Assembly: GCA_004295015.1 (NCBI GenBank)
Contig: SHNE01000033.1
Location: 75,421 to 139,420, forward strand
Direction of reading: 5' to 3'
Length of the DNA stretch: 64,000 bases
From: Bacteroidota bacterium
GTDB lineage: Bacteria; Bacteroidota; Bacteroidia; AKYH767-A; 2013-40CM-41-45
The position numbers and the translations under genes were made by a program. Of the stretch, positions 20,734 to 61,918 are shown piece after piece. Every line of letters starts with the position of its first letter. The first letter of the stretch is position 1. The notes beneath the pieces were generated by a model. It had not been told where the DNA came from, did no database searches, and saw only the letters and a program-made list of their open reading frames with translations.

Positions 20734-21846
20734 ATGAAAAAGCTTTTTACACTCAGCCTGTTGATTTTCGCATTCGTATCACCTTCCGCTGCGCAAATAA
20801 CTATAGGAAGTGCCGATTTACCGCATGCTAATGATACATTTCGACTAAGTATAGGTCAAATAACTCCGGGCATAAATGCTACCTTGACCGGGCCTGCGTT
20901 TACATGGGATTTTTCGCAACTCATGCCTACAGGTCAGCGAGTAGATTCATTTATCGATGAAAGCGCCACCAGCACTGTTTTCTCAATTGTGTTTATTGAC
21001 AACTCATTTAATACCAACAGGGCTAATCAGGCTACCGGATCAGATGATTTTAGTCTTGGTACATTTATTAGTTTAACGGGGGTCTTTGACTTTTTTTATA
21101 ATTCAAATGCTTCTTACAAACAGGTTGGTTTAGGTGCCAATGTAAATGGGATTCCTTTGCCAATTAGCTTTTCTCCACATGATATTATTTACAAGTTTCC
21201 ATTGAACTATCCTTCTCTTGATTCTTCCGCTTCAGGATATGCCGTCGATTTAGTCAGCACCATTGGTGTTTACTATAAAGTAGACAAGACTCGAAAGAAT
21301 GATGTGGACGGGTGGGGGAGCCTGACTACACCGCTTGGAACATTTAATGTTCTCAGAGTACATACTACAATCGTTGAAAAGGACAGTTTGTACCTGGATA
21401 CTCTTGGCCTGGGTTTCAATCTTCCTACCATCACATCACATGAGTATAAATGGCTAGGAGCAGGTCAGGGAATCCCCTTACTGCAGATTAATACTACTGC
21501 AGCCGGAGCAATTACCCAAATTTTATATAAGGACTCAGTTCGATCGCTTGTAAATATTGCTGAGCTTGATCAGACCTTGGAAGATTTTAAAATCTATCCG
21601 AATCCGTCCCCGGGAACTTCGACCATTTCTTATTCTTTAAAACAGTCCTCATTGGTCGGAATGGAACTAATTTCTGTCGATGGAAAAGTTTTCAATGGAT
21701 TCAAAACTGAAAAGCAAATTTCCGGATTGCACACTTGCAAAATTAACTTCCGTGAACAGAACATCACTGCAGGGAATTATCTCGTTCGATTAGAGGTGGA
21801 TGGTAGGTCTTACGTACGACCTTTAATCATCACAGATTCCAAATAG
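20734..21846 (+). CDS. Secreted protein with T9SS C-terminal sorting domain (cargo of unknown function)
   Basis: Signal peptide. C-terminal KIYPNPSPGTSTISY…VRLEVDGRSYVRPLII matches a type-A T9SS CTD. Confidence 0.6.
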   Translation: MKKLFTLSLLIFAFVSPSAAQITIGSADLPHANDTFRLSIGQITPGINATLTGPAFTWDFSQLMPTGQRVDSFIDESATSTVFSIVFIDNSFNTNRANQATGSDDFSLGTFISLTGVFDFFYNSNASYKQVGLGANVNGIPLPISFSPHDIIYKFPLNYPSLDSSASGYAVDLVSTIGVYYKVDKTRKNDVDGWGSLTTPLGTFNVLRVHTTIVEKDSLYLDTLGLGFNLPTITSHEYKWLGAGQGIPLLQINTTAAGAITQILYKDSVRSLVNIAELDQTLEDFKIYPNPSPGTSTISYSLKQSSLVGMELISVDGKVFNGFKTEKQISGLHTCKINFREQNITAGNYLVRLEVDGRSYVRPLIITDSK

Positions 21847-24427: not shown

Positions 24428-26701
24428 ATGTCATTACTCATCAATCGTTACTTCCCCCTTTTATCAATTTTACTGCTTGTTCTGATCGCTTTTCCGCAAT
24501 CCGGGATGGCTCAATCTATCGGTCATGTTCAAATTAACGGAAAGATCCGTAAGGATAACCGGCCTGAAGGAGGAGTGACCATTCAAATTACTTCGCCGGG
24601 AGCCGCTCCTCAGACAGTTACTTCTAAGGACAATGGTACTTTCAACGTAAGTCTGGATTTTCAAAAAGAGTATACCATTTCTTTTTTAAAAAATGGTCTG
24701 GTTTCTAAAAGTGTCGAGTTTAACACCAAGGTTCCCCCGCAGGAGTTAGATATTATTATCCAAACAGAATTCAACATCGATCTGTTTGCCGATGTAGCCG
24801 GGATGTCTAAAACAACGGCGATGAATAAACCGGTTGCGAAATATTCTTACAACCCGACTTATGAGGACTTTGTCTTTGATGCAAATTATTCAAAACAAAT
24901 AAAATCAGAACAGGAGACTGCCAGAAAAGATGCTGAAGATCTTGCAAGAATACAGGAGCGTGCAAGACTTGATTCATTAAATAAAATTTGGAATGATTCA
25001 CTTGCGAAAGTAAAAGAAAAGGAAGCTAAGTTGCTTGCAAGTCAGGCTGAACAGGATAGGATAAAAAAAGAGCAGGAAAAAGCCAGACAAGATTCCATTG
25101 CGAGAGCACAAGCTGCCATGCAAGCCAGTGCTGCTTTAGCAGCCAAAGAAAAATCAAGACTCGATAGTATTCAACTGGCAGAGTCAAAAGCAAATGCCCT
25201 GGCTGCTGCTTTGGAAAAGGAAAGACAGGATTCACTTATTAGAGCCGCTGCTGAGCAAGCCCGGCTTAAGGCAATCGCCGATGCCAGAGACAAGGCAATA
25301 CAAGACTCTACTCTAAAGGCTCAGGCAGAACAGGAACGACAAGATTCACTCGCTCAACTCAGAGCAGAAGCTGCAGCCAAAGCTAAAGCAGAGGCCGAAG
25401 CAAAGGCGGAAGCAAAGGCCAAACAAGACTCACTCAACAGAATTGCAGCTGAGGCTGCTGCTGAAAAGGCAAGATTGGAAGAAGAGGCCAGGCTGGCTGA
25501 AAAGGCAAAACAAGATTCTATTTTAAAGGCAAAGGCAGAGGCTGCAGCCAAAGAGAAAGCAATGCAGGATTCTATCATATTTGCAAATGCCGCAGCAGAA
25601 AAGGAACGCTTGCGCAATGAAGCTGAAGCTAAAAGATTAGAACAATTCCGACAAGATTCTATTGCAAAGGCACAATTAGCTGAGAAATCCAGATTAAAAG
25701 CAGAGGCCGATTCAATAGCAAAGTTAGAACAGGATAAACTTGCTCAGGAAAAAGCCAGAAAAGATTCACTTGCATTAGTTGCAGCAGCCGAAAAAGCAGC
25801 TGAACAGGCAAGAAAGGATTCAATAGCACTTGCAGAGCAACAAGAAAAGGCAAGAATTAAAGCTGAAGCAGAGAATCTTGCCAAAGCTGAACAAGATAAG
25901 CTGGAAAGGGAAAAAGCCAGAAAGGATTCTTTGGCATTAATAGCTCAAAAAGAAAACGAAAGGAAGAAGGCTGAAGCGGATAGTATTTTTACTGCAACAG
26001 AAGCCGCAAAGGCATTAGCCCGCGCCAATGAACTAGCCCGACAGGATTCAATTTTACGAGCCCAAAAAGCAGAGCAAGAAAAAGTGCTGGCGGAAACCAA
26101 GGCAAGAGAAGAAGAACTGTTGAAAAAGAAAGCTGCCGAGGAAGAAGCAAAGCAAGCTGCTATCAAAGCAAAGGCAGAACAAGATGCTCAGTCGAAGGCT
26201 GAAGCAGACAGACTAAAGAAGGAAGAAGATGCCAGATTAAAATTGGCAGAAGAGCAAAAAGCGAAAGCAGAAGTAGAGCGCCTTGCTCAGCTGGCAGCGG
26301 ATAAAGCCCGACAAGATTCATTAGCACTTGCCAACCGACTTGAACAAGAGAGGCTGGAGGAGCAAAGGCAAAAGAAAGCATTGGCAGAAATTGAAGAGAA
26401 GAAAAGATTGCTTGCCAAAGCCGGTGAAACTGAAGATAAAACCAAGACAGCTCCTAAACCTTCTACGGTAGTTCCAAAAATTATTGACTCTGATTACCGC
26501 GATGGCTTAACTGAAGAAACAATCACGGAATCCAACAGGATCATTTACAGAACAGTTTTGAAAATGGATGGAAGTGCTTTCAATTATCAGAAGATAGTTT
26601 ATAATTGGGGTGGTATTTATTATTTTAAAAATGAAACCAGTATTACCCAATCTTTATTTGATCAGGAATTGAAGAATGCCAAAGCAACTCTCGGAAAATA
26701 A
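24428..26701 (+). CDS. Secreted protein with an N-terminal carboxypeptidase-regulatory-like domain, a ~550-aa Ala/Lys/Glu/Gln-rich coiled coil carrying repeated [RK][QK]DS[IL] motifs, and a C-terminal globular domain
   Basis: Signal peptide, CarbopepD_reg-like segment, a long low-complexity helical region and a ~100-aa C-terminal domain. Confidence 0.7.
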   Translation: MSLLINRYFPLLSILLLVLIAFPQSGMAQSIGHVQINGKIRKDNRPEGGVTIQITSPGAAPQTVTSKDNGTFNVSLDFQKEYTISFLKNGLVSKSVEFNTKVPPQELDIIIQTEFNIDLFADVAGMSKTTAMNKPVAKYSYNPTYEDFVFDANYSKQIKSEQETARKDAEDLARIQERARLDSLNKIWNDSLAKVKEKEAKLLASQAEQDRIKKEQEKARQDSIARAQAAMQASAALAAKEKSRLDSIQLAESKANALAAALEKERQDSLIRAAAEQARLKAIADARDKAIQDSTLKAQAEQERQDSLAQLRAEAAAKAKAEAEAKAEAKAKQDSLNRIAAEAAAEKARLEEEARLAEKAKQDSILKAKAEAAAKEKAMQDSIIFANAAAEKERLRNEAEAKRLEQFRQDSIAKAQLAEKSRLKAEADSIAKLEQDKLAQEKARKDSLALVAAAEKAAEQARKDSIALAEQQEKARIKAEAENLAKAEQDKLEREKARKDSLALIAQKENERKKAEADSIFTATEAAKALARANELARQDSILRAQKAEQEKVLAETKAREEELLKKKAAEEEAKQAAIKAKAEQDAQSKAEADRLKKEEDARLKLAEEQKAKAEVERLAQLAADKARQDSLALANRLEQERLEEQRQKKALAEIEEKKRLLAKAGETEDKTKTAPKPSTVVPKIIDSDYRDGLTEETITESNRIIYRTVLKMDGSAFNYQKIVYNWGGIYYFKNETSITQSLFDQELKNAKATLGK
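24900..26400. repeat. Low-complexity repetitive coding DNA (GCn/AAR/GAR codons with recurrent 'caagattca') inside the coiled-coil gene
   Basis: Seen in the sequence. Gives rise to several spurious antisense ORFs. Confidence 0.6.
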
Positions 26702-38213: not shown

Positions 38214-40589
38214 ATGCGATTTAGCTTTTTACTCCTTTTCATTTTTACTTCAATCATTGGTCAATGTCAACCGAATATCCAATGGCAGAAATGTTTTGGT
38301 GGATCAAATTCAGAATATTCTTCAAAAGCAATTCAGAATTCCTTAGGAGATTTCAGTATTGTAGGAGGGACAAATTCTGTTGATGGCCAAGTAACAGGTT
38401 TGCATCCGGGTTTATGCCAATTTTCTGATTGTTATGACATTTGGATTGTAAACCTTGATAGCAGTGGTAATTTACTATGGACAGAAACCTTTGGTGGAAC
38501 ATACGATGATTATGCTCAATCTGTCGTAAGTTCTCCCGATGGAGGAGTCCTTGTATGCGGAATCACCTATTCAAATAATGGCGACGTAAGCGGTAATCAT
38601 GGTGAATCTGATGTATGGTTACTGAAACTAGATTCAAGTGGTACTCTTGAATGGCAAAAGTGCTATGGAGGATCTAGTTTCGAAGGAGCAAAGGACATAA
38701 TATCAACATATGATGGCGGCTATGTTGTGATTGGATCATCTTGGTCAATAGATGGTGATGTACCTGGTAATCACCGTCCAAACCCTGGCCCTGGTGGAGC
38801 AACTGCAGATGTTTGGATTTTTAAATTGGATTCCGCTGGCACAATAGAATGGTCAAAAAATTATGGAAGTTTGGGTGACGATATAGGCTTTTCCATAGTC
38901 CAAACATTTGATAGTGGGTTTGCCTTTTTGGCAACTAGTGAAACTAGTGGAGGGGATGTAACTGGTGGAAATGGGTACAAAGATTACTGGCTTGGAAGAA
39001 TAGATAATTTGGGAAATTTTCTTTGGGGAGATTGTTTTGGTGGGAGGGGGTCTGATGAAGGGGTTGATCTAAAACAAACACCGGATAGTGGATTTGTTTT
39101 AATTGGAAAAACTGCCTCAACTGACGGTGACATTAGTTACAATCATGACTCAATACATTATGATTCATGGCTTGTACGAACTGATCAATTAGGGACATTG
39201 CTATGGGAAAAATCAATTGGAGGTACAAATAATGATGCCGGTAATTCAGTAATAGTACTTCCGGATTCCGGATTTCTGGTGTGCACAACAGCATACTCAA
39301 CAGATGGAGATATCACTGGGAGTAATGGTTCTACTGAGATACTTGTTTCTAAAATTAGTGATAGTGGCCAGATCTTATGGGGTAAATGCTTTGGGGGGTC
39401 AGGTTCGGAGGACAATGTGGATTTAATTGCATCTGAGGACGGTGGGTGGTTAATTATTAACGAATCCTATTCCAATGATGCCGATGTAAGTGGCAACCAC
39501 GGTGGAATTGATTTTTGGATTGCAAAACTATTTGAACCCTCTGTGTATGAAGCAGCAATTAAATTGAAACCCATAAATGGAAGTTGCACCCTCACAGATA
39601 CAGAAGAAGTAATTCTTCAGATCACCAATTTAGGGATACATGAGTTTTCAAACTTTCAGGCAAGTTATTCCATTAATGGTGGGAACCCCGTGCAAGAAAT
39701 TATTTCTGATACAATTTATCCCGGAGATACATTGTTATATCATTTTATTACCCGTGCAGATTTCATCCTTCCCGGGACGTATACCTTGCAGGCTAACGTG
39801 ATTGTAGTCGGTGATGGACATGCATTTAATGATGTGAGTACAATTAATGTTACTTCTATCTCTCATAATACAGTCCCTATGATAATGGGCTTTGAGAGTC
39901 AGGAATATTTTGGAGCGTATAAAAGTATTGACTTAGATGGAGATGGTCGCTCAGGTTCTTTGGATCTAGGCTACCCCCAAAATGGGAGTCAATGCTATGT
40001 CTTTGCGAGCTCCTTTCTTCCAAATCCAAATAATTGGCTTTGGACACCGTGTATTGATTTAAATGCATTAACCAATTATAAAGTAAGTGGATGGATGAAA
40101 GAATACGAGGTTATTCAACCATATAATCTAGAAATCTACATCAACCAAGAGCCTGACACAACAGGAGCTATCTTGTTAGGAACTGTTCTTACTCCAACGG
40201 ATAGTTCATACCATCCATTTCAATTTCCTTTCACTGTTAGCTCAGGTGGTATCTGGTATATTGGTCTAAAAGCGTATGCACAAAATTATGCACAAGCCGT
40301 GTTCCTTGATGATTTAGAAATTGATCTTTACACAGGAATTCAAGCACAGAAAGGCATTGAATTTTATACATTATATCCAAACCCATTCAAAGACAAAATT
40401 TATTTCAATCAAGAAAACTTCCTCAATGGGGAAATCACAATTTTCAACACGCTGGGAAAGCTGGTTTATACCGGCCAGCTAAAATCTCGCTCATCCATCG
40501 ATTTATCTTTTTTAAATGATGGCATTTATTTTCTGAAATACAATGATGAAAAAGTAACTCATATAAAAAAAATCATAAAACAGAATTAA
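38214..40589 (+). CDS. SBBP-type beta-propeller repeat protein with T9SS C-terminal sorting domain
   Basis: About 7 tandem ~50-aa repeats (W..K.FGG…D.…DGG..V.G.T.S.DGDV.GNHG..D.W..KLD..G.L.W) and a C-terminal Por_Secre_tail-like segment. Confidence 0.65.
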   Translation: MRFSFLLLFIFTSIIGQCQPNIQWQKCFGGSNSEYSSKAIQNSLGDFSIVGGTNSVDGQVTGLHPGLCQFSDCYDIWIVNLDSSGNLLWTETFGGTYDDYAQSVVSSPDGGVLVCGITYSNNGDVSGNHGESDVWLLKLDSSGTLEWQKCYGGSSFEGAKDIISTYDGGYVVIGSSWSIDGDVPGNHRPNPGPGGATADVWIFKLDSAGTIEWSKNYGSLGDDIGFSIVQTFDSGFAFLATSETSGGDVTGGNGYKDYWLGRIDNLGNFLWGDCFGGRGSDEGVDLKQTPDSGFVLIGKTASTDGDISYNHDSIHYDSWLVRTDQLGTLLWEKSIGGTNNDAGNSVIVLPDSGFLVCTTAYSTDGDITGSNGSTEILVSKISDSGQILWGKCFGGSGSEDNVDLIASEDGGWLIINESYSNDADVSGNHGGIDFWIAKLFEPSVYEAAIKLKPINGSCTLTDTEEVILQITNLGIHEFSNFQASYSINGGNPVQEIISDTIYPGDTLLYHFITRADFILPGTYTLQANVIVVGDGHAFNDVSTINVTSISHNTVPMIMGFESQEYFGAYKSIDLDGDGRSGSLDLGYPQNGSQCYVFASSFLPNPNNWLWTPCIDLNALTNYKVSGWMKEYEVIQPYNLEIYINQEPDTTGAILLGTVLTPTDSSYHPFQFPFTVSSGGIWYIGLKAYAQNYAQAVFLDDLEIDLYTGIQAQKGIEFYTLYPNPFKDKIYFNQENFLNGEITIFNTLGKLVYTGQLKSRSSIDLSFLNDGIYFLKYNDEKVTHIKKIIKQN

Positions 40590-40844: not shown

Positions 40845-42665
40845 TCAAACTTGTAATTCGGAAGGTTCCGGAACCAACTCTTGTGCAATTGCACGACGAT
40901 GTTGGGCCAGGTCTTCAATGAAACTATCAATGTATGCTTTACTTTCCCTTTGAAAATCGGCAGAGAGTTTTTTATAGTATTCAATTCCCTCCAACAGATT
41001 GTTCTTGTAATTCTGCAGATGACGGTGCTGGATTTTATTCAGCTTACCTTGTCCATCTTTTATCTCTTGCTTGAAATGTTCAACGTAGAGCTTGAGTTCA
41101 TTCACAAACATGTTAGAACGTTTACCGGAGCCGAGAAGGTTTAGCCGTCCATAAATGTGATCAACCATTTCTTTCAATGAAAAGATTCCTGAAAAGTATG
41201 CCAGGTTAGGACCGGGGCATATGGCTACGGCATTAAGTTTATGAGGAGACTCAATATCATTTTTCAATCTGGCGGATTCTCCCAAGCCTTCGCAAAGACA
41301 ATCTTTCGCAACAATCTTTTCATATTGTTGATCGCGAATTTCTTGAGGTAACTGCAATCCATCGAGTTCTTTGAGTTTTAAATTCTGGTATTCACGGGAG
41401 GCTGTACAAATGGGCTTTTCCGTGAATTCTGTATTGGTTGAAAGATACTTCTTGTAACAGGGACTTCCGGGTCTGCCTTTCTCTATTCTTGCTTTACGTT
41501 GTATTTCTGAAGTGCTTTTTCGGAAGCTATGAATAGGAATTCCTAAAGGTGAGGAATGACTCAGGTAGTAATCATCTTTTTTGGCAGTAGCCAGTGCTCT
41601 CAAGGTTCGGTCATCAACATTCGTGGCTTCAGGTACCAATAGAAAAGGGCTTCCCCAACCGGTCGCATCTGCTTCAAAATAGTCTAACAAGAAATTATTT
41701 TCGTTCGCCGTTCCGATTCCTCCCTGTACAGTAATTTTCAATGATGTATCATCGGCCAGTTGATGCATGTCTTTAGCCGATAGATTTTTATTACAAAGCT
41801 CCATTAGCTCCTGTCGCAGAGTAAGCCTGTTCTGCTTGAATTCTTCGAGAATAGGTCCAAGTAGTTTGCCTTCAGTGGCAAAAGCATGCCCACCGCAATT
41901 CAAGCCGGATTCTATTCTATACTCTGAAATCCATACACCCTTCTTGGCCAGAATCTTTCCTTGGGTAATAGCAGATCTGTAATCACTCACCTTCAGAATG
42001 ATCTTCTTTTTTAATGTTGAATGTTTATCAGGAAAAAAATCGGCGAATGATTCTATGTAAGTATATAATAGCGGATTATACCCTGCAGATAAAACGACTG
42101 AAGAACTTAGATTGCTCAAAGCAAATCCGCGTAAAGCCGAAAGTGCATCAGAATATTCTCTACTCAATTCTTCTCCGGAACTACTGTAATTTATTCTGTC
42201 AGCCTTAGCCATAATGTTAACATCGATGGCACCTGCCTGAATACTTTGACGAAGTTGTTCCTGCAATTTTATTTTTTCAGCGCCTTCGTCGATTTCGAGC
42301 ATAGCAAGGAAGAGTTTCTTCAATGCAGCACTTTCAGGCAATAATTCGAAATATTTATAAATATCAGAGTCTTTATCAAATTCTTCTTTCTGAAGCGTCT
42401 CAATTTGTTCTTTCACCAGCTGTTCCATAAGATTGAGATATGCGCTGATTCGTTTGGCCCGAGCATCCTGGCTGCCACTTTTAATTTCATGGTATTCGAT
42501 ATTGTTTTTCTGACAATGAAAGCGGCGCATTTCCTCTACGAGTTCATCTTCGATAATGGAGACTACGGAATTGATTCCGTATTTGGCTACTTTTAAGGGA
42601 GTATCTATTGTAAATCCCAATCCCATAACCGGGATGTGAAAATTATGTGTCTTATTGGTTTGCAT
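40845..42665 (-). CDS. FMN-dependent NMO/FabK (nitronate monooxygenase / enoyl-ACP reductase II)-like TIM-barrel oxidoreductase with large insertions and a C-terminal extension
   Basis: Motifs align to the FabK/NMO family: PVMGLGFT (cf. GGMAWV), SGLNCGGHAF (cf. EAGGHIG), VQGGIGTA (cf. AAGGIADG). At 606 aa it is about twice the size of FabK. Confidence 0.45.
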   Translation of the reverse strand: MQTNKTHNFHIPVMGLGFTIDTPLKVAKYGINSVVSIIEDELVEEMRRFHCQKNNIEYHEIKSGSQDARAKRISAYLNLMEQLVKEQIETLQKEEFDKDSDIYKYFELLPESAALKKLFLAMLEIDEGAEKIKLQEQLRQSIQAGAIDVNIMAKADRINYSSSGEELSREYSDALSALRGFALSNLSSSVVLSAGYNPLLYTYIESFADFFPDKHSTLKKKIILKVSDYRSAITQGKILAKKGVWISEYRIESGLNCGGHAFATEGKLLGPILEEFKQNRLTLRQELMELCNKNLSAKDMHQLADDTSLKITVQGGIGTANENNFLLDYFEADATGWGSPFLLVPEATNVDDRTLRALATAKKDDYYLSHSSPLGIPIHSFRKSTSEIQRKARIEKGRPGSPCYKKYLSTNTEFTEKPICTASREYQNLKLKELDGLQLPQEIRDQQYEKIVAKDCLCEGLGESARLKNDIESPHKLNAVAICPGPNLAYFSGIFSLKEMVDHIYGRLNLLGSGKRSNMFVNELKLYVEHFKQEIKDGQGKLNKIQHRHLQNYKNNLLEGIEYYKKLSADFQRESKAYIDSFIEDLAQHRRAIAQELVPEPSELQV

Positions 42666-57168: not shown

Positions 57169-59004
57169 ATGAAGAGACTGATACTTCCGCTTCTGTTTTG
57201 TTTGAGTATCTCCGGATTTGCTCAAACATTTTCGAACACGACGCCAACTCCGATACCGAATACAAATACGGATATTTCTATCCCTATTTATGTCATTGGT
57301 ATCCCGAACGTAATAGATTCTTCTTTTGGAATTGGTGCCGTTTGTTTGAATATTTCGCATCAGTTCACAGCCGATTTAGTTGTCAAATTAAAATCTCCAA
57401 GTGGAACAATTATCATTCTTGCCGATTCAAAAGGAGGAAGTTCAAACGGTTACCCGGGAACATGTTTCCAGGAGAATGCCACGGATGGCTGGATAAATCT
57501 GGCCCCAACACCTTTTACAGGCTCGTATTATCCACAACAGTCGCTCAACTTATTTAACACAGGTGAAAATCCAAATGGAACATGGGAATTGATTCTTCGG
57601 GATGTATTCACTCCGTCAGATACAGGATCATTTCAGTATATCAACATCACATTTATGTTTAATCCTCCGGCAGATCCGGCATCCGGCGGAGGGCCTTGCA
57701 GTGCTTCAAATCCTGCCGCTTGTCAATGCCCGGATGGTGTATTAACGAATTGTGATTTACTGCCTGATATGACGGCATCTGCTCTTTGTATTCAAAATGA
57801 TCATCAGGAATATCCCGGAAATATTACCCTGGCAAATGCCACACCTAACATAGGCTACGGACCTTTGGAGATTCATGGGTCAGGGACTTGTTATTGCGAT
57901 ACTGTTCCGGTTTCCTGTTCAACTTCTGTTTGTCCTGATGGATCTGCTGTCAAGGAATTGATCATTCAACGCGTTTATCACAGAGATAACGCTTCAATGA
58001 CTTATTACGATCGTCCTGCAGGTACTATGAGTTATCATCCTACTCATGGCCATGTGCATGTAGATAATTGGGCAGAGTTTACTCTTCGTCGCGGTACCTC
58101 TGATCCTGATGCTCGCAATTGGCCGGTGATAGGTGAAGGAACGAAAGTCAGCTTTTGCCTGGTTAATCTGGGAGATTGTGACAGCGATTTTGGGTATTGC
58201 GTAGACTCAATCGGTCAGTCATTGCACAAAGCAGATATTCCGAATTCTGATTTTGGTACTGTATCAGGATGTAGCCGTGATCAGGGAATTTATGTTGGTA
58301 ACCTGGATATTTACAGTTCGGGATTAAATGGAATGGGAATTATTCTTCCACCTAACACCTGCAATGGAGATTATTACATCGTTTCTATTACCGACCCCCA
58401 AAATAACATGCTTGAAATGAACGATGACAATAATTGGGTTGCGGTTCCAATAACTCTTACCCAACAAAGTGCAGGATCATTTCCTGCTACAGGATATATG
58501 TATACCGTGAATGGGAACTCTGCAAACCTCGTTGCCAATGCTGTCGGTGCAGATTCATTAGTTTGGAGTTGGGGCGATGGTTCAGTGAATGACGTAACAA
58601 CAAACATTTTGCTGACACATACATTTCCTGCTGCCGGTGATTATATTGTTACTCTGACTGCTTATAATCAGTGCGGACCAACGGTTACGATAGATACCGT
58701 TGTTATTCTGCCTATTAATACAGGAATTTCAGAAAATGAAAAATTATTCTCCTTGAAAGTATTTCCTAATCCTGCCAAGAATTCCTTTACACTTTCTTAT
58801 GTTCTTGGCTCTTCAGATGATATCACATTCTCTTTGACTGATGTTAGAGGACGTATCATTTTGGAAGATCATTATGCAAATCAGTTAGCCGGAAAACATG
58901 AAAGTAATTTTGATACACAGAACTTAGGAATGAGTCCCGGGGTATATAATCTTAAATTAATGACATCCAATATTATACAAACAAAAAGGATTGTTATTCA
59001 TTGA
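57169..59004 (+). CDS. Secreted multidomain protein: proprotein-convertase P-domain, lysyl-oxidase-like catalytic domain, PKD domain and T9SS C-terminal sorting domain
   Basis: P-domain-like N-terminus. LOX-like Cu-site YHPTHGHVHVDNWAEF (cf. WHSCHQHYHSMDEF) and EGTKVSFCLVNLGDCDSDFGYC (cf. [24 protein letters not shown], with the LTQ Lys conserved). PKD (WGDGS…TLTAYNQCG). T9SS tail. Confidence 0.6.
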   Translation: MKRLILPLLFCLSISGFAQTFSNTTPTPIPNTNTDISIPIYVIGIPNVIDSSFGIGAVCLNISHQFTADLVVKLKSPSGTIIILADSKGGSSNGYPGTCFQENATDGWINLAPTPFTGSYYPQQSLNLFNTGENPNGTWELILRDVFTPSDTGSFQYINITFMFNPPADPASGGGPCSASNPAACQCPDGVLTNCDLLPDMTASALCIQNDHQEYPGNITLANATPNIGYGPLEIHGSGTCYCDTVPVSCSTSVCPDGSAVKELIIQRVYHRDNASMTYYDRPAGTMSYHPTHGHVHVDNWAEFTLRRGTSDPDARNWPVIGEGTKVSFCLVNLGDCDSDFGYCVDSIGQSLHKADIPNSDFGTVSGCSRDQGIYVGNLDIYSSGLNGMGIILPPNTCNGDYYIVSITDPQNNMLEMNDDNNWVAVPITLTQQSAGSFPATGYMYTVNGNSANLVANAVGADSLVWSWGDGSVNDVTTNILLTHTFPAAGDYIVTLTAYNQCGPTVTIDTVVILPINTGISENEKLFSLKVFPNPAKNSFTLSYVLGSSDDITFSLTDVRGRIILEDHYANQLAGKHESNFDTQNLGMSPGVYNLKLMTSNIIQTKRIVIH

Positions 59005-59024: not shown

Positions 59025-59059
59025 AATGCCTTGAATAATCCTCAGGGCATTTTTTTTTG
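59025..59059 (+). terminator. Rho-independent terminator after the LOX-like gene
   Basis: AATGCC-(15-nt loop)-GGCATT followed by T9. Confidence 0.45.
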
Positions 59060-59133
59060 TCTATTTTTGAGCATTAAATATTTCTAAAATCCCGGCTTTA
59101 AATCGGAGTTGAAATTCCTTTAAGCTAAAAGAC

Positions 59134-60522
59134 TTGATCTTTATCATGAAACAAAAAAACGTTTTTTTTATTTTGATTCCTTTTTTCGTATTGCTTAGTC
59201 ATTTCAGTTTTTCCCAGGTTTCATTATTGTGGAAGGATCCCATCAAAACATCCTTGAACAGTGTGAATCAGGCAGTCTTAATGGAAATGGATAAGCTTGG
59301 AAACTGCTATGTGGTAGGGATAACCTGGGTAGCTGATTCGACCAAGGATATCTTGATCATGAAATTTGATCCAAATGGTGCAGAAATTTGGCGACGTTTT
59401 TATGATGGGCCGGCACACAATGATGATATCGCTATAACAGCTTGTCTGGACCACTACGGTGATATTATTGTTTCCGGTACAAGTAAAGATGAGAAAGGAA
59501 ACGTGGATATATGTTTAGTCAAATTTTCGAATGAAGGCGTACCGGTTTTCAGCCGGACAATGGATGGAGGATCATTCTTGTTTGATGCTCCTACATCAGT
59601 TACTTGTGATCCTATAGGGAATATTTTACTTGGTGGCTATGTAACCAGTCCGGATTCAGGACTAAACCTTGCCCTATACCGGTTTTATCCTGACGGTCAG
59701 TTATCCTGGTTCCGAACTTCCGGTACCACAAATATGGACATTGCCAATACATTGGTAGCAGACGACTCCTGTAATGTATATGTGGGCGGAACCTACAATT
59801 CATCGATACGTACCTCTGACATGCTGATTCAAAAATATGACTCCGCAGGTAATAAGAAATGGGAATATATCTATGATGGAACACTTTCAATGGGAGATGC
59901 AATCTTCCATATGGCTGCAGATGATTCAACAAATTTGTATGTCACAGGATACCTGAACCATGGAAGTGAACGATCTGACATTCCTATTTTCAAATTAAGT
60001 CGAAATGGAGAGTTGCTGCAGGAGAATATATTTTTTGGAGGAATGACTGATTGTATCAGCAAGCAATTGTTTGTCGACAAAACCGGTTGCTTCATTATCG
60101 CACAACAAAGTGATTACATGAGAGGAACAACTGCTACAATCGCCCTTCATTACAACAAAGCAGGGGAGCAGACCTTATTTCTGAAGAATGAGAAAGGTAT
60201 ACGTTTTGGCAAGATAGTTTCGTTAAACGGAACTGCTTTGATTCTTGGAACAGGACTCATAAGACCGGAGAACACGCTGATTCCATTTATTGCCGAAACG
60301 GATACCTCCGGTGAAATCGAATGGCAATATGCTGATTCAAGCATAGCAGGACTTTCACATATGTTGGATTACAGGGTGCGAGGCAACAAACTTTATTTTC
60401 TCGGAGATGATACCGGTGAAGCCACCGGAACCATAACCTTGTTTTGTTATCAATTAAAAAAAGAAGCAGCAGGTAAAAGAAAACCTGTTAAAAAAGCGAA
60501 TGGCACATTACGCAAAAATTAA
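59134..60522 (+). CDS. SBBP beta-propeller repeat protein, secreted, no T9SS tail
   Basis: Signal peptide. Repeats of …DG…D.a.ai..d..G.i.vsGt…D…vKf…G…w… resemble SBBP. Confidence 0.5.
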   Translation: MIFIMKQKNVFFILIPFFVLLSHFSFSQVSLLWKDPIKTSLNSVNQAVLMEMDKLGNCYVVGITWVADSTKDILIMKFDPNGAEIWRRFYDGPAHNDDIAITACLDHYGDIIVSGTSKDEKGNVDICLVKFSNEGVPVFSRTMDGGSFLFDAPTSVTCDPIGNILLGGYVTSPDSGLNLALYRFYPDGQLSWFRTSGTTNMDIANTLVADDSCNVYVGGTYNSSIRTSDMLIQKYDSAGNKKWEYIYDGTLSMGDAIFHMAADDSTNLYVTGYLNHGSERSDIPIFKLSRNGELLQENIFFGGMTDCISKQLFVDKTGCFIIAQQSDYMRGTTATIALHYNKAGEQTLFLKNEKGIRFGKIVSLNGTALILGTGLIRPENTLIPFIAETDTSGEIEWQYADSSIAGLSHMLDYRVRGNKLYFLGDDTGEATGTITLFCYQLKKEAAGKRKPVKKANGTLRKN

Positions 60523-61918
60523 CGCAACACACCTTTCCGAACTGGTGGAGATTGTTGGACAGGGAAATGTTTTTACTGATTCCGAAGTTCTCATCGATAA
60601 TTCGCATGATTACACAGAAGATCTTCGGTTTTTACCTGAGGTAGTGGTTAAACCAAGGACAGCGGAAGAAATATCTTCGATTCTTAAACTTTGTAATCGG
60701 GAAAATATCGCTGCAACTCCCAGAGGAGCGGGAACAGGATTAAGTGGCGGAGCTCTGCCAGTCCATGGCGGCATTGTAGTGAGCATGGAAAGATTCAACT
60801 CTATTCTCAACATTGATGAAAGAAACCTTCAGGCGCTTGTAGAGCCGGGGGTTATCAATCAGGTATTTCAGGAAGCTGTGAATGAAAAAGGATTGTTCTA
60901 TCCTCCTGATCCGGCGAGTAAAGGCAGTTGTTTTCTGGGAGGTAATTTGGCTGAATGTGCAGGCGGACCAAAAGCCGTAAAATACGGGGTAACGAAAGAC
61001 TATGTTTTGAATACAGAAGTTGTACTCCCGACCGGAGAAATTATTTGGACCGGCGCGAATGTTTTGAAGAATTCCACGGGCTATAATTTGACTCAGCTTT
61101 TAATAGGTAGTGAGGGAACTCTTGGTATCATTACAAAAATAGTATTCCGTTTGATCCCACTTCCCACTGAGAATCTATTAATGTTGGTTCCCTTTCGGGA
61201 TGCCGGCAAAGCATGCGAAGCAGTGAGTGCTATTTTCAGAGCAGGATTAACTCCATCTGCATTGGAATTTATGGAAAGAGATTGCATTGAGTTTGTGATG
61301 AAGCATACTGAAGTAAAGATCCCGCTCCCGGCAGGAATTCAGGCGCATTTACTAATTGAAGTAGATGGAATGGATAAAGAGGTCTTGTTTAAAGACTGCG
61401 AGAAAATATCTTCGATTTTGGAGCAATATGATTGTGAAGAAGTACTCTTTGCTGAATCATCGCAACAAAAAGCAGAGCTATGGAGAGCAAGAAGATCTGC
61501 AGGTGAAGCTGTAAAATCTCATTCAATATATAAGGAGGAGGATACAGTTGTTCCAAGAGCTGAATTGTCAAAGCTTTTATCCGGAGTAAAAATGATCGGA
61601 AAGAAATACGGATTCCGGAGTGTTTGTTATGGTCACGCAGGGGATGGAAATCTGCATGTCAATATCATCAAAGAGGATATGACAGATGAAGATTGGAATA
61701 CTAAAGTGCCTCAGGGAATCCGGGAAATATTTGAACTTTGCGTTTCATTAGGAGGAACGATTTCAGGTGAGCACGGGATAGGTTATGTACAGAAACCATA
61801 TCTTAATATTGCCTTCAATGAATCTCAATTGAATCTTATGAGAGGGATAAAAAAACTTTTCGATCCGAATGGTATTTTAAATCCCGGAAAAATTTTTAGC
61901 GATTCTTATGCGGAATAA
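60500..61918 (+). CDS. FAD-linked oxidase (GlcD/D-lactate dehydrogenase-like)
   Basis: FAD_binding_4 (…RGAGTGLSGGA…) plus a C-terminal FAD-oxidase domain. Confidence 0.85.
   Translation: MAHYAKINATHLSELVEIVGQGNVFTDSEVLIDNSHDYTEDLRFLPEVVVKPRTAEEISSILKLCNRENIAATPRGAGTGLSGGALPVHGGIVVSMERFNSILNIDERNLQALVEPGVINQVFQEAVNEKGLFYPPDPASKGSCFLGGNLAECAGGPKAVKYGVTKDYVLNTEVVLPTGEIIWTGANVLKNSTGYNLTQLLIGSEGTLGIITKIVFRLIPLPTENLLMLVPFRDAGKACEAVSAIFRAGLTPSALEFMERDCIEFVMKHTEVKIPLPAGIQAHLLIEVDGMDKEVLFKDCEKISSILEQYDCEEVLFAESSQQKAELWRARRSAGEAVKSHSIYKEEDTVVPRAELSKLLSGVKMIGKKYGFRSVCYGHAGDGNLHVNIIKEDMTDEDWNTKVPQGIREIFELCVSLGGTISGEHGIGYVQKPYLNIAFNESQLNLMRGIKKLFDPNGILNPGKIFSDSYAE

Follow-up and report, generated by a model that had tools for sequence, protein, structure and literature searches.

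Locus and domain layout

We analysed a 64,000-nucleotide stretch of DNA from a Bacteroidota bacterium (GCA_004295015.1, contig SHNE01000033.1, positions 75,421 to 139,420 of the forward strand), referred to throughout as the window, and within it a gene whose product carries a lysyl oxidase (LOX)-like domain. The original prediction, made from the letters alone, had placed an open reading frame (ORF) here and given its product a P-domain before the LOX domain, then a PKD domain and a type IX secretion system (T9SS) sorting tail. Both statements hold: the ORF of 611 amino acids begins and ends exactly where proposed, on the + strand, and the P-domain, the PKD domain and the tail all pass their Pfam cut-offs, the tail also that of TIGR04183. 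The same protein, with the same gene call and the same neighbours, is present on a 32.5-kb metagenome contig from SRR8466246. From its N-terminus the protein consists of a signal peptide, a furin-type P-domain, a Cys-rich LOX-like domain, a PKD domain and a type-A T9SS sorting tail, laid out as follows.

57169–59004, + strand: protein-coding gene, complete with stop codon; ATG start, 611 amino acids (ORF list)
57169–57222, + strand: Sec signal peptide, residues 1–18 (MKRLILPLLFCLSISGFA), predicted cleavage before Q19 (read by inspection)
57232–57663, + strand: proprotein-convertase-type P-domain, a beta-sandwich without attached protease, residues ~22–165 (Pfam PF01483, Foldseek)
57664–57696, + strand: Pro/Gly-rich linker PPADPASGGGP, residues 166–176 (low predicted local distance difference test score, pLDDT, in both models; variable in the alignment)
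57697–58473, + strand: LOX-like catalytic domain with 13 invariant Cys, residues 177–435 (Pfam, fold, profile and homology evidence)
58489–58743, + strand: PKD domain, residues ~441–525 (Pfam PKD and PKD_4)
58759–59001, + strand: type-A T9SS C-terminal sorting domain, residues 531–611 (PF18962, TIGR04183)

By inspection, the signal peptide has a basic n-region, a hydrophobic core and an A-Q junction. Q19 is kept in at least 90% of the sequences in a family alignment of 49 full-length relatives, the set to which counts out of 49 refer below, and its position after the predicted signal peptide fits the Bacteroidetes Q-rule (PMC5837995). P_proprotein (PF01483) was detected at residues 58–161 with 37.2 bits against a cut-off of 21, and in 49 of 49 relatives. 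PKD and PKD_4 both match residues 462–506, with 26.7 bits (cut-off 23.5) and 27.9 bits (cut-off 27) respectively, and the family profile matches solved PKD domains of ColH and of an archaeal S-layer protein (E 3.6e-13). The sorting tail, likewise found in 49 of 49 relatives, scores 39.6 bits for Por_Secre_tail (PF18962, residues 531–610, cut-off 27) and 44.2 bits for the NCBIfam model of the T9SS type A sorting domain, TIGR04183 (cut-off 23). A full-length AlphaFold model (mean pLDDT 86.2, predicted template modelling score 0.64) has four well-folded all-beta domains, with low-confidence linkers near residues 171–180 and 511–530. Foldseek matches of this model include furin, LOXL2 and PorU; the furin match covers the P-domain over about 155–160 columns with a probability of 1.00.

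The central domain belongs to the lysyl oxidase family

The Cys-rich core had been proposed to correspond to the catalytic core of animal lysyl oxidases, and the predicted fold, profile–profile alignment, homology to a published LOX homologue and conserved residues all bear this out. In a fold search, the predicted fold of the domain matched LOXL2 uniquely; the PDB searches returned a single LOX-family structure, that of LOXL2 (5ZE3), which is a Zn-bound precursor. When the family profile was compared with the true 5ZE3 sequence (hmmsearch, hhalign), the match had a probability of 93.5% over 122 columns. BLASTP aligned the window protein with Rudanella_lutea_518835221, taken from the supplement to Grau-Bove et al. 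2015 (PMC4448552), at 37% identity over 411 amino acids (window residues 37–433, E 4e-79).

Pfam detects the domain at the edge of its range. Lysyl_oxidase (PF01186) matches residues 286–434 of the window protein over profile positions 77–198 of 204, with 18.6 bits and an E value of 0.0016 against a cut-off of 20.4. The lack of a significant match to this family had been named as evidence that would count against the assignment; the window protein misses the cut-off narrowly, close relatives pass it, and the fold and profile evidence supersedes the Pfam score. PF01186 matches 29 of the 49 full-length relatives at E ≤ 0.01 (best 2.8e-8), and other proteins with the same LOX-like domain score 33–35 bits. 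These data show that the central domain is a true, distant LOX-family catalytic domain in which all catalytic residues are kept.

Active-site and metal-site residues

Residues were equated with those of animal enzymes through a bridging alignment, A3, comprising the window domain, two relatives, the Rudanella, Deinococcus pimensis, Amycolatopsis methanolica and Acanthamoeba sequences, LOXL2 (5ZE3) and human LOX; the human LOX sequence was checked by its 2.6e-66 match to 5ZE3. The columns invariant in A3 are exactly D200, N227, G229, H293, H295, H297, K326, C330, G377, D380, Y382, G400, Y402, E416 and N422. Across the 49 relatives, H293, H295, H297, K326, Y382 and the 13 Cys of the LOX domain are invariant. 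The sites are as follows; LTQ denotes the lysine tyrosylquinone cofactor.

57760–57771, + strand: LPDM, residues 198–201, equivalent to LOX/LOXL2 'PDL'; D200 corresponds to the LOXL2 Ca ligand D549 and is invariant in A3
57838–57864, + strand: ATPNIGYGP, residues 224–232, equivalent to LOX 'RVKNQGTSD'; N227 and G229 invariant to human LOX
58033–58071, + strand: copper-binding motif YHPTHGHVHVDNW, residues 289–301; H293, H295 and H297 predicted Cu ligands, invariant in 49/49
58144–58146, + strand: K326, predicted LTQ lysine, within EGTKVSFCL; invariant, equivalent to LOXL2 K653 and LOX K320
58312–58314, + strand: Y382, predicted LTQ tyrosine and fourth precursor metal ligand, in DQGIYVGNLDIY; invariant in 49/49
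58414–58434, + strand: EMNDDNN, residues 416–422, equivalent to the LOXL2 Ca loop E722-x-D724-x-x-N727-N728; E416 and N422 invariant in A3

In the LOXL2 structure, metal is bound by H626, H628, H630 and Y689, LTQ is formed by K653 and Y689, and the Ca2+ ligands are D549, L550, E722, D724, N727 and N728 (PMC5899467). Two peptide strings had been put forward as counterparts of the LOX copper site and of the LTQ lysine; both are present, YHPTHGHVHVDNWAEF at residues 289–304 and EGTKVSFCLVNLGDCDSDFGYC at residues 323–344, and both align as proposed. H293, H295 and H297 fall opposite LOXL2 H626, H628 and H630 and LOX H292, H294 and H296. The LTQ tyrosine, for which an alignment check had been suggested, is identified by that check as Y382: it corresponds to LOXL2 Y689 and LOX Y355, with LDIY aligned to WDMY of LOXL2 and YDTY of LOX. 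The nearby Y375 (in GIY) was rejected for this role, as it lies opposite Thr in LOXL2 and is replaced by Phe in three relatives, whereas Y382 does not vary. At the calcium site, D200-M201, E416, N418, N421 and N422 occupy the positions of LOXL2 D549, L550, E722, D724, N727 and N728, and N421 is invariant in the family.

A gap in the hhalign alignment had made ATPNIGxGP appear to be a family-specific motif. This was rejected, since A3 and the Acanthamoeba LOX, which contains TATPNIG, equate the motif with LOX 'RVKNQG'. A separate observation concerns H290 (58036–58038), the counterpart of LOX H289, the 'first' His of the animal copper motif, which is present in the window protein and in 44 of the 49 relatives; Grau-Bove et al. 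2015 (PMC4448552) reported the H289-equivalent His to be absent from bacterial LOX sequences.

The differences from human LOXL2 and LOX (5ZE3; PF01186) are considerable. Identity is about 20%, and the LOX-like domain spans about 260 residues against about 200 in LOX, the roughly 60 extra residues including a C-x7-C-x-C-x7-C knot at 177–195, an insert at 238–262 and about 20 residues between K326 and Y382. The 13 invariant Cys compare with 10 in LOXL2, a P-domain takes the N-terminal place of the propeptide or SRCR repeats of LOX and LOXL2, and, unlike either, the protein is predicted to be exported by the T9SS. Lysine makes up 2.1% of its residues, the lowest value among the 43 window ORFs of at least 200 amino acids (median 7.3%). 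The LOX domain contains no more than three lysines (K262, K326 and K354), of which one is catalytic; across the family, lysine makes up a median 1.1% of this domain. So low a lysine content hints at an enzyme that oxidises peptidyl-lysine, which it would suit.

Distribution and annotation of relatives

In a database search we obtained 917 relatives, of which the best 120 are mostly full-length, 45–90% identical and of the same architecture, and about half of the 120 have PF01186 on record, nearly always together with PF01483, a PKD family and PF18962. A profile of the LOX domain, searched against representatives clustered at 50% identity, matched 3409 clusters at E ≤ 1e-3; of these, 1168 remained at E ≤ 1e-10 and 218 at E ≤ 1e-30. 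Several giant proteins of 1600–3400 amino acids (P0169, P0213, P0223, P0227, P0235, P0242 and others) match this profile only at about 210–270, 12–25 times each. Their repeats are CARDB-like and have in common with LOX a C-terminal sandwich strand and an E-x-x-x-x-N-N Ca-loop motif; because they match only the C-terminal third of the profile, they inflate the raw count of LOX-domain matches. The window protein does not pass the Pfam cut-off for CARDB.

A near-complete LOX-like domain was found in 128 of the best 147 representative clusters, in the following settings.

T9SS tail of the same type: 80 of 128 clusters
P-domain before or after the LOX domain: 47 of 128 clusters
P-LOX-PKD with or without tail, the architecture of the window protein: 22 of 128 clusters
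P-LOX only: 10 of 128 clusters

Further combinations detected with Pfam were CUB-LOX-P, GEVED-P-LOX-PKD-tail and LOX-P-Ig-PKD-tail. A P-domain together with a LOX domain is the recurring core of this subfamily. Two proteins of the representative library, P0124 and P0125, carry CUB domains, a LOX-like domain and P-domains together; such CUB domains are a typical feature of extracellular proteins in animals, among them the protease by which animal LOX is activated.

In GTDB species genomes we located 263 loci, almost all of them in uncultured Bacteroidota; two of the copies lie in one complete genome, CP185379.1. The genomes nearest to the window are uncultured Bacteroidia metagenome-assembled genomes (MAGs), and a relative with 62% identity occurs in Candidatus Pollutiaquabacter aromativorans (order Ca. 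Pollutiaquabacterales). The earlier statement that LOX domains are rare in bacteria cannot be kept in view of these loci, the 218 clusters matched at the strictest threshold and the five bacterial phyla, Bacteroidetes included, in which Grau-Bove et al. 2015 (PMC4448552) recorded LOX. That study found a simple architecture in all but three prokaryotic LOX sequences, and the Rudanella lutea homologue is evidently one of the three. It comes from the same phylum as the window protein and has the same P-domain and LOX core; it differs in ending after the LOX domain, without a PKD domain or T9SS tail, and has only been catalogued in a phylogeny.

The original prediction had also regarded the combination of domains as undescribed, which overstates its novelty. 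P-domain and LOX occur together in the supplement of PMC4448552 and in hundreds of database entries; in the literature searched, we found no paper that discusses the P-LOX-PKD-tail architecture or links any LOX to the T9SS. The multi-domain, T9SS-tagged form of LOX is widespread in Bacteroidota databases and undescribed in that literature. The enzyme itself is of a known kind: it has a canonical active site, and homologues of LOX from bacteria, one of them with a P-domain, were catalogued in 2015. Relatives bear the public names 'subtilisin-like proprotein convertase family', 'PKD domain-containing', 'T9SS type A sorting domain-containing' and 'hypothetical protein', and standard annotation overlooks the LOX-like catalytic domain in them.

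Genes adjoining the LOX-like gene

The LOX-like gene is divergent from the upstream DUF3127 gene. Two features follow it.

59025–59061, + strand: terminator-like hairpin (59025–59051) and T-run after the stop codon, a 10-bp stem followed by TTTTTTTGTC; consensus pattern match only
59146–60522, + strand: SBBP beta-propeller gene, 458 amino acids, with signal peptide and Lys-rich C-terminal tail; Pfam SBBP 22.8 bits, ATG start from the L081 gene call

Neighbouring genes encode YdjM, an FKBP-type isomerase (FKBP/SlyD), the DUF3127 protein, the SBBP beta-propeller, a GlcD-like FAD oxidase and an SDR protein. The block is syntenic in loci L001 and L003–L008 and is shared among close relatives only. 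YdjM, FKBP/SlyD, DUF3127, the GlcD-like oxidase and the SDR protein were considered as operon partners and rejected, their synteny being confined to close relatives and offering no functional link. The last 23 bases of the propeller gene (60500–60522) are also the first of the GlcD-like oxidase gene, and the latter overlaps the SDR gene (61908–61918). These overlaps suggest that the three are co-transcribed, and the terminator-like hairpin separates the LOX-like gene from them.

In L001, L003–L008 and L051, and in 13 of 16 copies in the peat MAG palsa_967, the LOX-like gene has the propeller gene directly downstream; the propeller is a conserved neighbour and a possible partner of the LOX-like protein. 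Propellers of the window's clade have a signal peptide and no T9SS tail, and their Lys-rich C-terminal tail of about 20 residues is kept in composition, not in sequence.

Amplified copies and cassettes in palsa_967

The window holds no further copy of the LOX-like gene. In palsa_967 (PLYJ01 contigs), at least 16 copies of the P-LOX-PKD-tail gene were found on separate, non-syntenic contigs (L009, L010, L012–L024 and L026). Two of the three copies that are not followed by a propeller gene lie at contig ends. Many of the copies stand in a recurring, co-oriented cassette of T9SS cargo genes, complete or partial depending on the copy, in this order.

1: Omp28-like protein (T9SS tail)
2: LOX-like protein
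3: SBBP propeller (T9SS tail)
4: C10 peptidase with Inhibitor_I69 prodomain (T9SS tail)
5: BNR/sortilin-like propeller (T9SS tail)

Pairwise comparison of ten of these copies gave 72–84% identity for the LOX proteins and 49–67% for their propeller partners, and the propellers carry a T9SS tail in place of the Lys-rich tail. A TPR histidine kinase and a LuxR-type regulator are encoded near two of the palsa_967 loci. At most loci at 43–49% identity, what is encoded downstream is either an unrelated H+-pyrophosphatase or another large protein of the T9SS cargo type; as these distant loci carry other downstream genes, no partner is universal.

Proposed function and alternatives

From the sequence and the structural models, the gene product is likely to be a secreted, copper-dependent amine oxidase of the LOX family with an LTQ cofactor. 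The Sec signal peptide would be cut before Q19. The all-beta protein would then fold in the periplasm, where the 13 invariant Cys of the LOX domain would form disulfides and Cu2+ would be bound by H293, H295 and H297; with O2, Y382 would be oxidised and cross-linked to K326, giving LTQ. For this step the residues and the fold are those described above, and the LTQ chemistry is carried over from the biochemistry of LOXL2 and of the Haloterrigena LOX (HTU-LOX). The type-A C-terminal domain would direct export by the T9SS, after which the tail would be removed and the protein anchored to the surface or released; the sorting signal is present, and export, tail removal and final location are expected from established T9SS biology. 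Outside the cell, the enzyme would convert primary amines to aldehydes, NH3 and H2O2, its likeliest substrates being lysine side chains of proteins and peptides and related amines. The P-domain and PKD domain are non-catalytic beta-sandwich modules that probably serve to bind or position the substrate.

The sequence most reasonably points to amine oxidation or cross-linking outside the cell. The role would probably lie in extracellular protein processing, whether for the release of nutrient nitrogen, for H2O2-based antagonism or for the cross-linking of surface or prey proteins. Such processing fits the amplification in palsa_967 inside T9SS-cargo cassettes, several of which include a C10 cysteine protease. 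We prefer an extracellular amine or peptidyl-lysine oxidase that works beside secreted proteases and binding proteins, and rank it above the cross-linking of a matrix in which the propeller is the substrate.

Better-studied enzymes give some guidance to these activities. LodA and GoxA of marine bacteria belong to an unrelated family with a different fold and have cysteine tryptophylquinone instead of LTQ. They too oxidise amino acids, are secreted by bacteria and derive their quinone cofactor from the protein itself, and serve as a functional analogue for one possible role, with no homology implied; LodA is reported to oxidise the epsilon-amine of lysine with release of H2O2 and to act in antagonism and biofilms (PMC4417212, PMC3948610). 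HTU-LOX is the only prokaryotic LOX for which we found a report of activity: its refolding is Cu-dependent, it is sensitive to beta-aminopropionitrile and of relaxed specificity, and it acts on lysine and polymers, on many primary amines and on amine antibiotics; the enzyme is described as cryptic. It shares with the window protein a prokaryotic origin, membership of the LOX family and a signal peptide, and differs in being archaeal and of another architecture, without P-domain, PKD domain or T9SS tail. It gives the best guidance on what the window enzyme may do.

A number of observations weigh against an active, secreted LOX. The window protein alone falls 1.8 bits below the PF01186 cut-off, phmmer with its single sequence and a domain-only profile each found no match in the PDB, and the full-length family profile reached LOXL2 only at E 0.14. 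The Pfam score and the two empty searches would be expected if the likeness to LOX came from short motifs, rich in His and Cys, that matched by chance. Fold, profile–profile alignment, pairwise homology to a published LOX homologue and family-wide invariance of residues agree independently in refuting a chance match, and we dropped it as vanishingly improbable; PDB searches by sequence alone are too insensitive here, and a fold search was required. The spacing of K326 and Y382 (56 residues, against 35–36 in LOX and LOXL2) means that LTQ formation is not guaranteed. No T9SS component was found by Pfam among the window ORFs scanned, 10 of the larger ones, no search being aimed at machinery genes; two other window genes with the same T9SS tail imply a working system. 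These two cargo proteins are themselves lysine-poor (3.8% and 4.6%), so low lysine is weak evidence for the chemistry. The LOX-like gene appears to be monocistronic in the window, with neighbours that, the propeller apart, offer no functional clue, and in the literature searched we found no paper characterising any Bacteroidota LOX.

Other identities and roles were weighed in the same way. The name 'subtilisin-like proprotein convertase family protein', which the Joint Genome Institute (JGI) gives to many relatives, arises from the P-domain match alone and hides the LOX-like domain. The P-domain is real: it passes the PF01483 cut-off and superposes on the furin P-domain. Unlike that of furin and kexin, it is joined to a LOX domain and not to a subtilisin domain; Pfam detects neither Peptidase_S8 nor any other protease domain in the window protein or the 49 relatives, and the only other large domain has the LOX fold. 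The convertase identity was dropped on these grounds, its probability being close to nil. It is quite unlikely that the protein is a non-catalytic adhesin or structural surface protein in which the LOX-like beta-sandwich is only a metal-binding or binding module among Ig-like domains. An active LOX-type enzyme might instead cross-link the cell's own surface or matrix proteins, with the neighbouring secreted propeller as substrate or scaffold. LOX chemistry does yield cross-linking aldehydes (PMC5899467), a Lys-rich tail is conserved at the C-terminus of the window-clade propeller, and the propeller gene is directly downstream not only in the window and its nearest loci but also in most of the diverged palsa_967 copies, so that the pair has been kept through duplication. 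Against this, the window-clade propeller lacks a T9SS tail and may not reach the same compartment, a terminator-like hairpin stands between the two genes in the window, and most of the loci at 43–49% identity have other genes in that position. The Lys-rich tail as a substrate is further weakened by its confinement to the window's syntenic clade and its replacement by a T9SS tail in the amplified cassettes. We regard the propeller-substrate role as unlikely.

The preferred amine or peptidyl-lysine oxidase could also be part of something larger. There is a slim chance that it forms the catalytic centre of a system, so far undescribed, by which Bacteroidota modify extracellular proteins: a T9SS toolkit of oxidase, beta-propeller, C10 protease and Omp28-like protein for the covalent cross-linking of such proteins or for chemical attack on them. 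If so, its uses would be a cross-linked surface matrix or the immobilisation and digestion of prey or host proteins, amplified to at least 16 copies in some lineages, and it would provide the first physiological role for a bacterial LOX and show prokaryotes applying LOX chemistry to extracellular proteins independently. In animals, lysyl oxidases have a central place in the biology of the extracellular matrix, and no prokaryotic member has a known physiological role. The window protein stands in a large, multi-domain and mostly T9SS-tagged branch of Bacteroidota LOX. Recognising its LOX-like domain would correct the annotation of hundreds of proteins, offers tractable access to a bacterial LOX that is soluble and secreted by nature, with which structure and LTQ biogenesis could be studied, and raises the ecological hypothesis that extracellular amine oxidation is coupled to secreted proteases.

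Other genes in the window

The two further window genes with a type-A T9SS tail lie at 20734–21846 and 38214–40589, both on the + strand; in the rest of their proteins (~285 and ~720 residues, respectively), no Pfam family was detected at E ≤ 1e-5. Two large ORFs, 24428–26701 (+ strand, 757 amino acids) and 40845–42665 (− strand, 606 amino acids), are likewise without a Pfam match at that threshold. The window otherwise holds ordinary chromosomal genes, for example those for NAD-dependent DNA ligase, LptD, ComEC and an ABC-F protein, and its G+C content is about 39% throughout.

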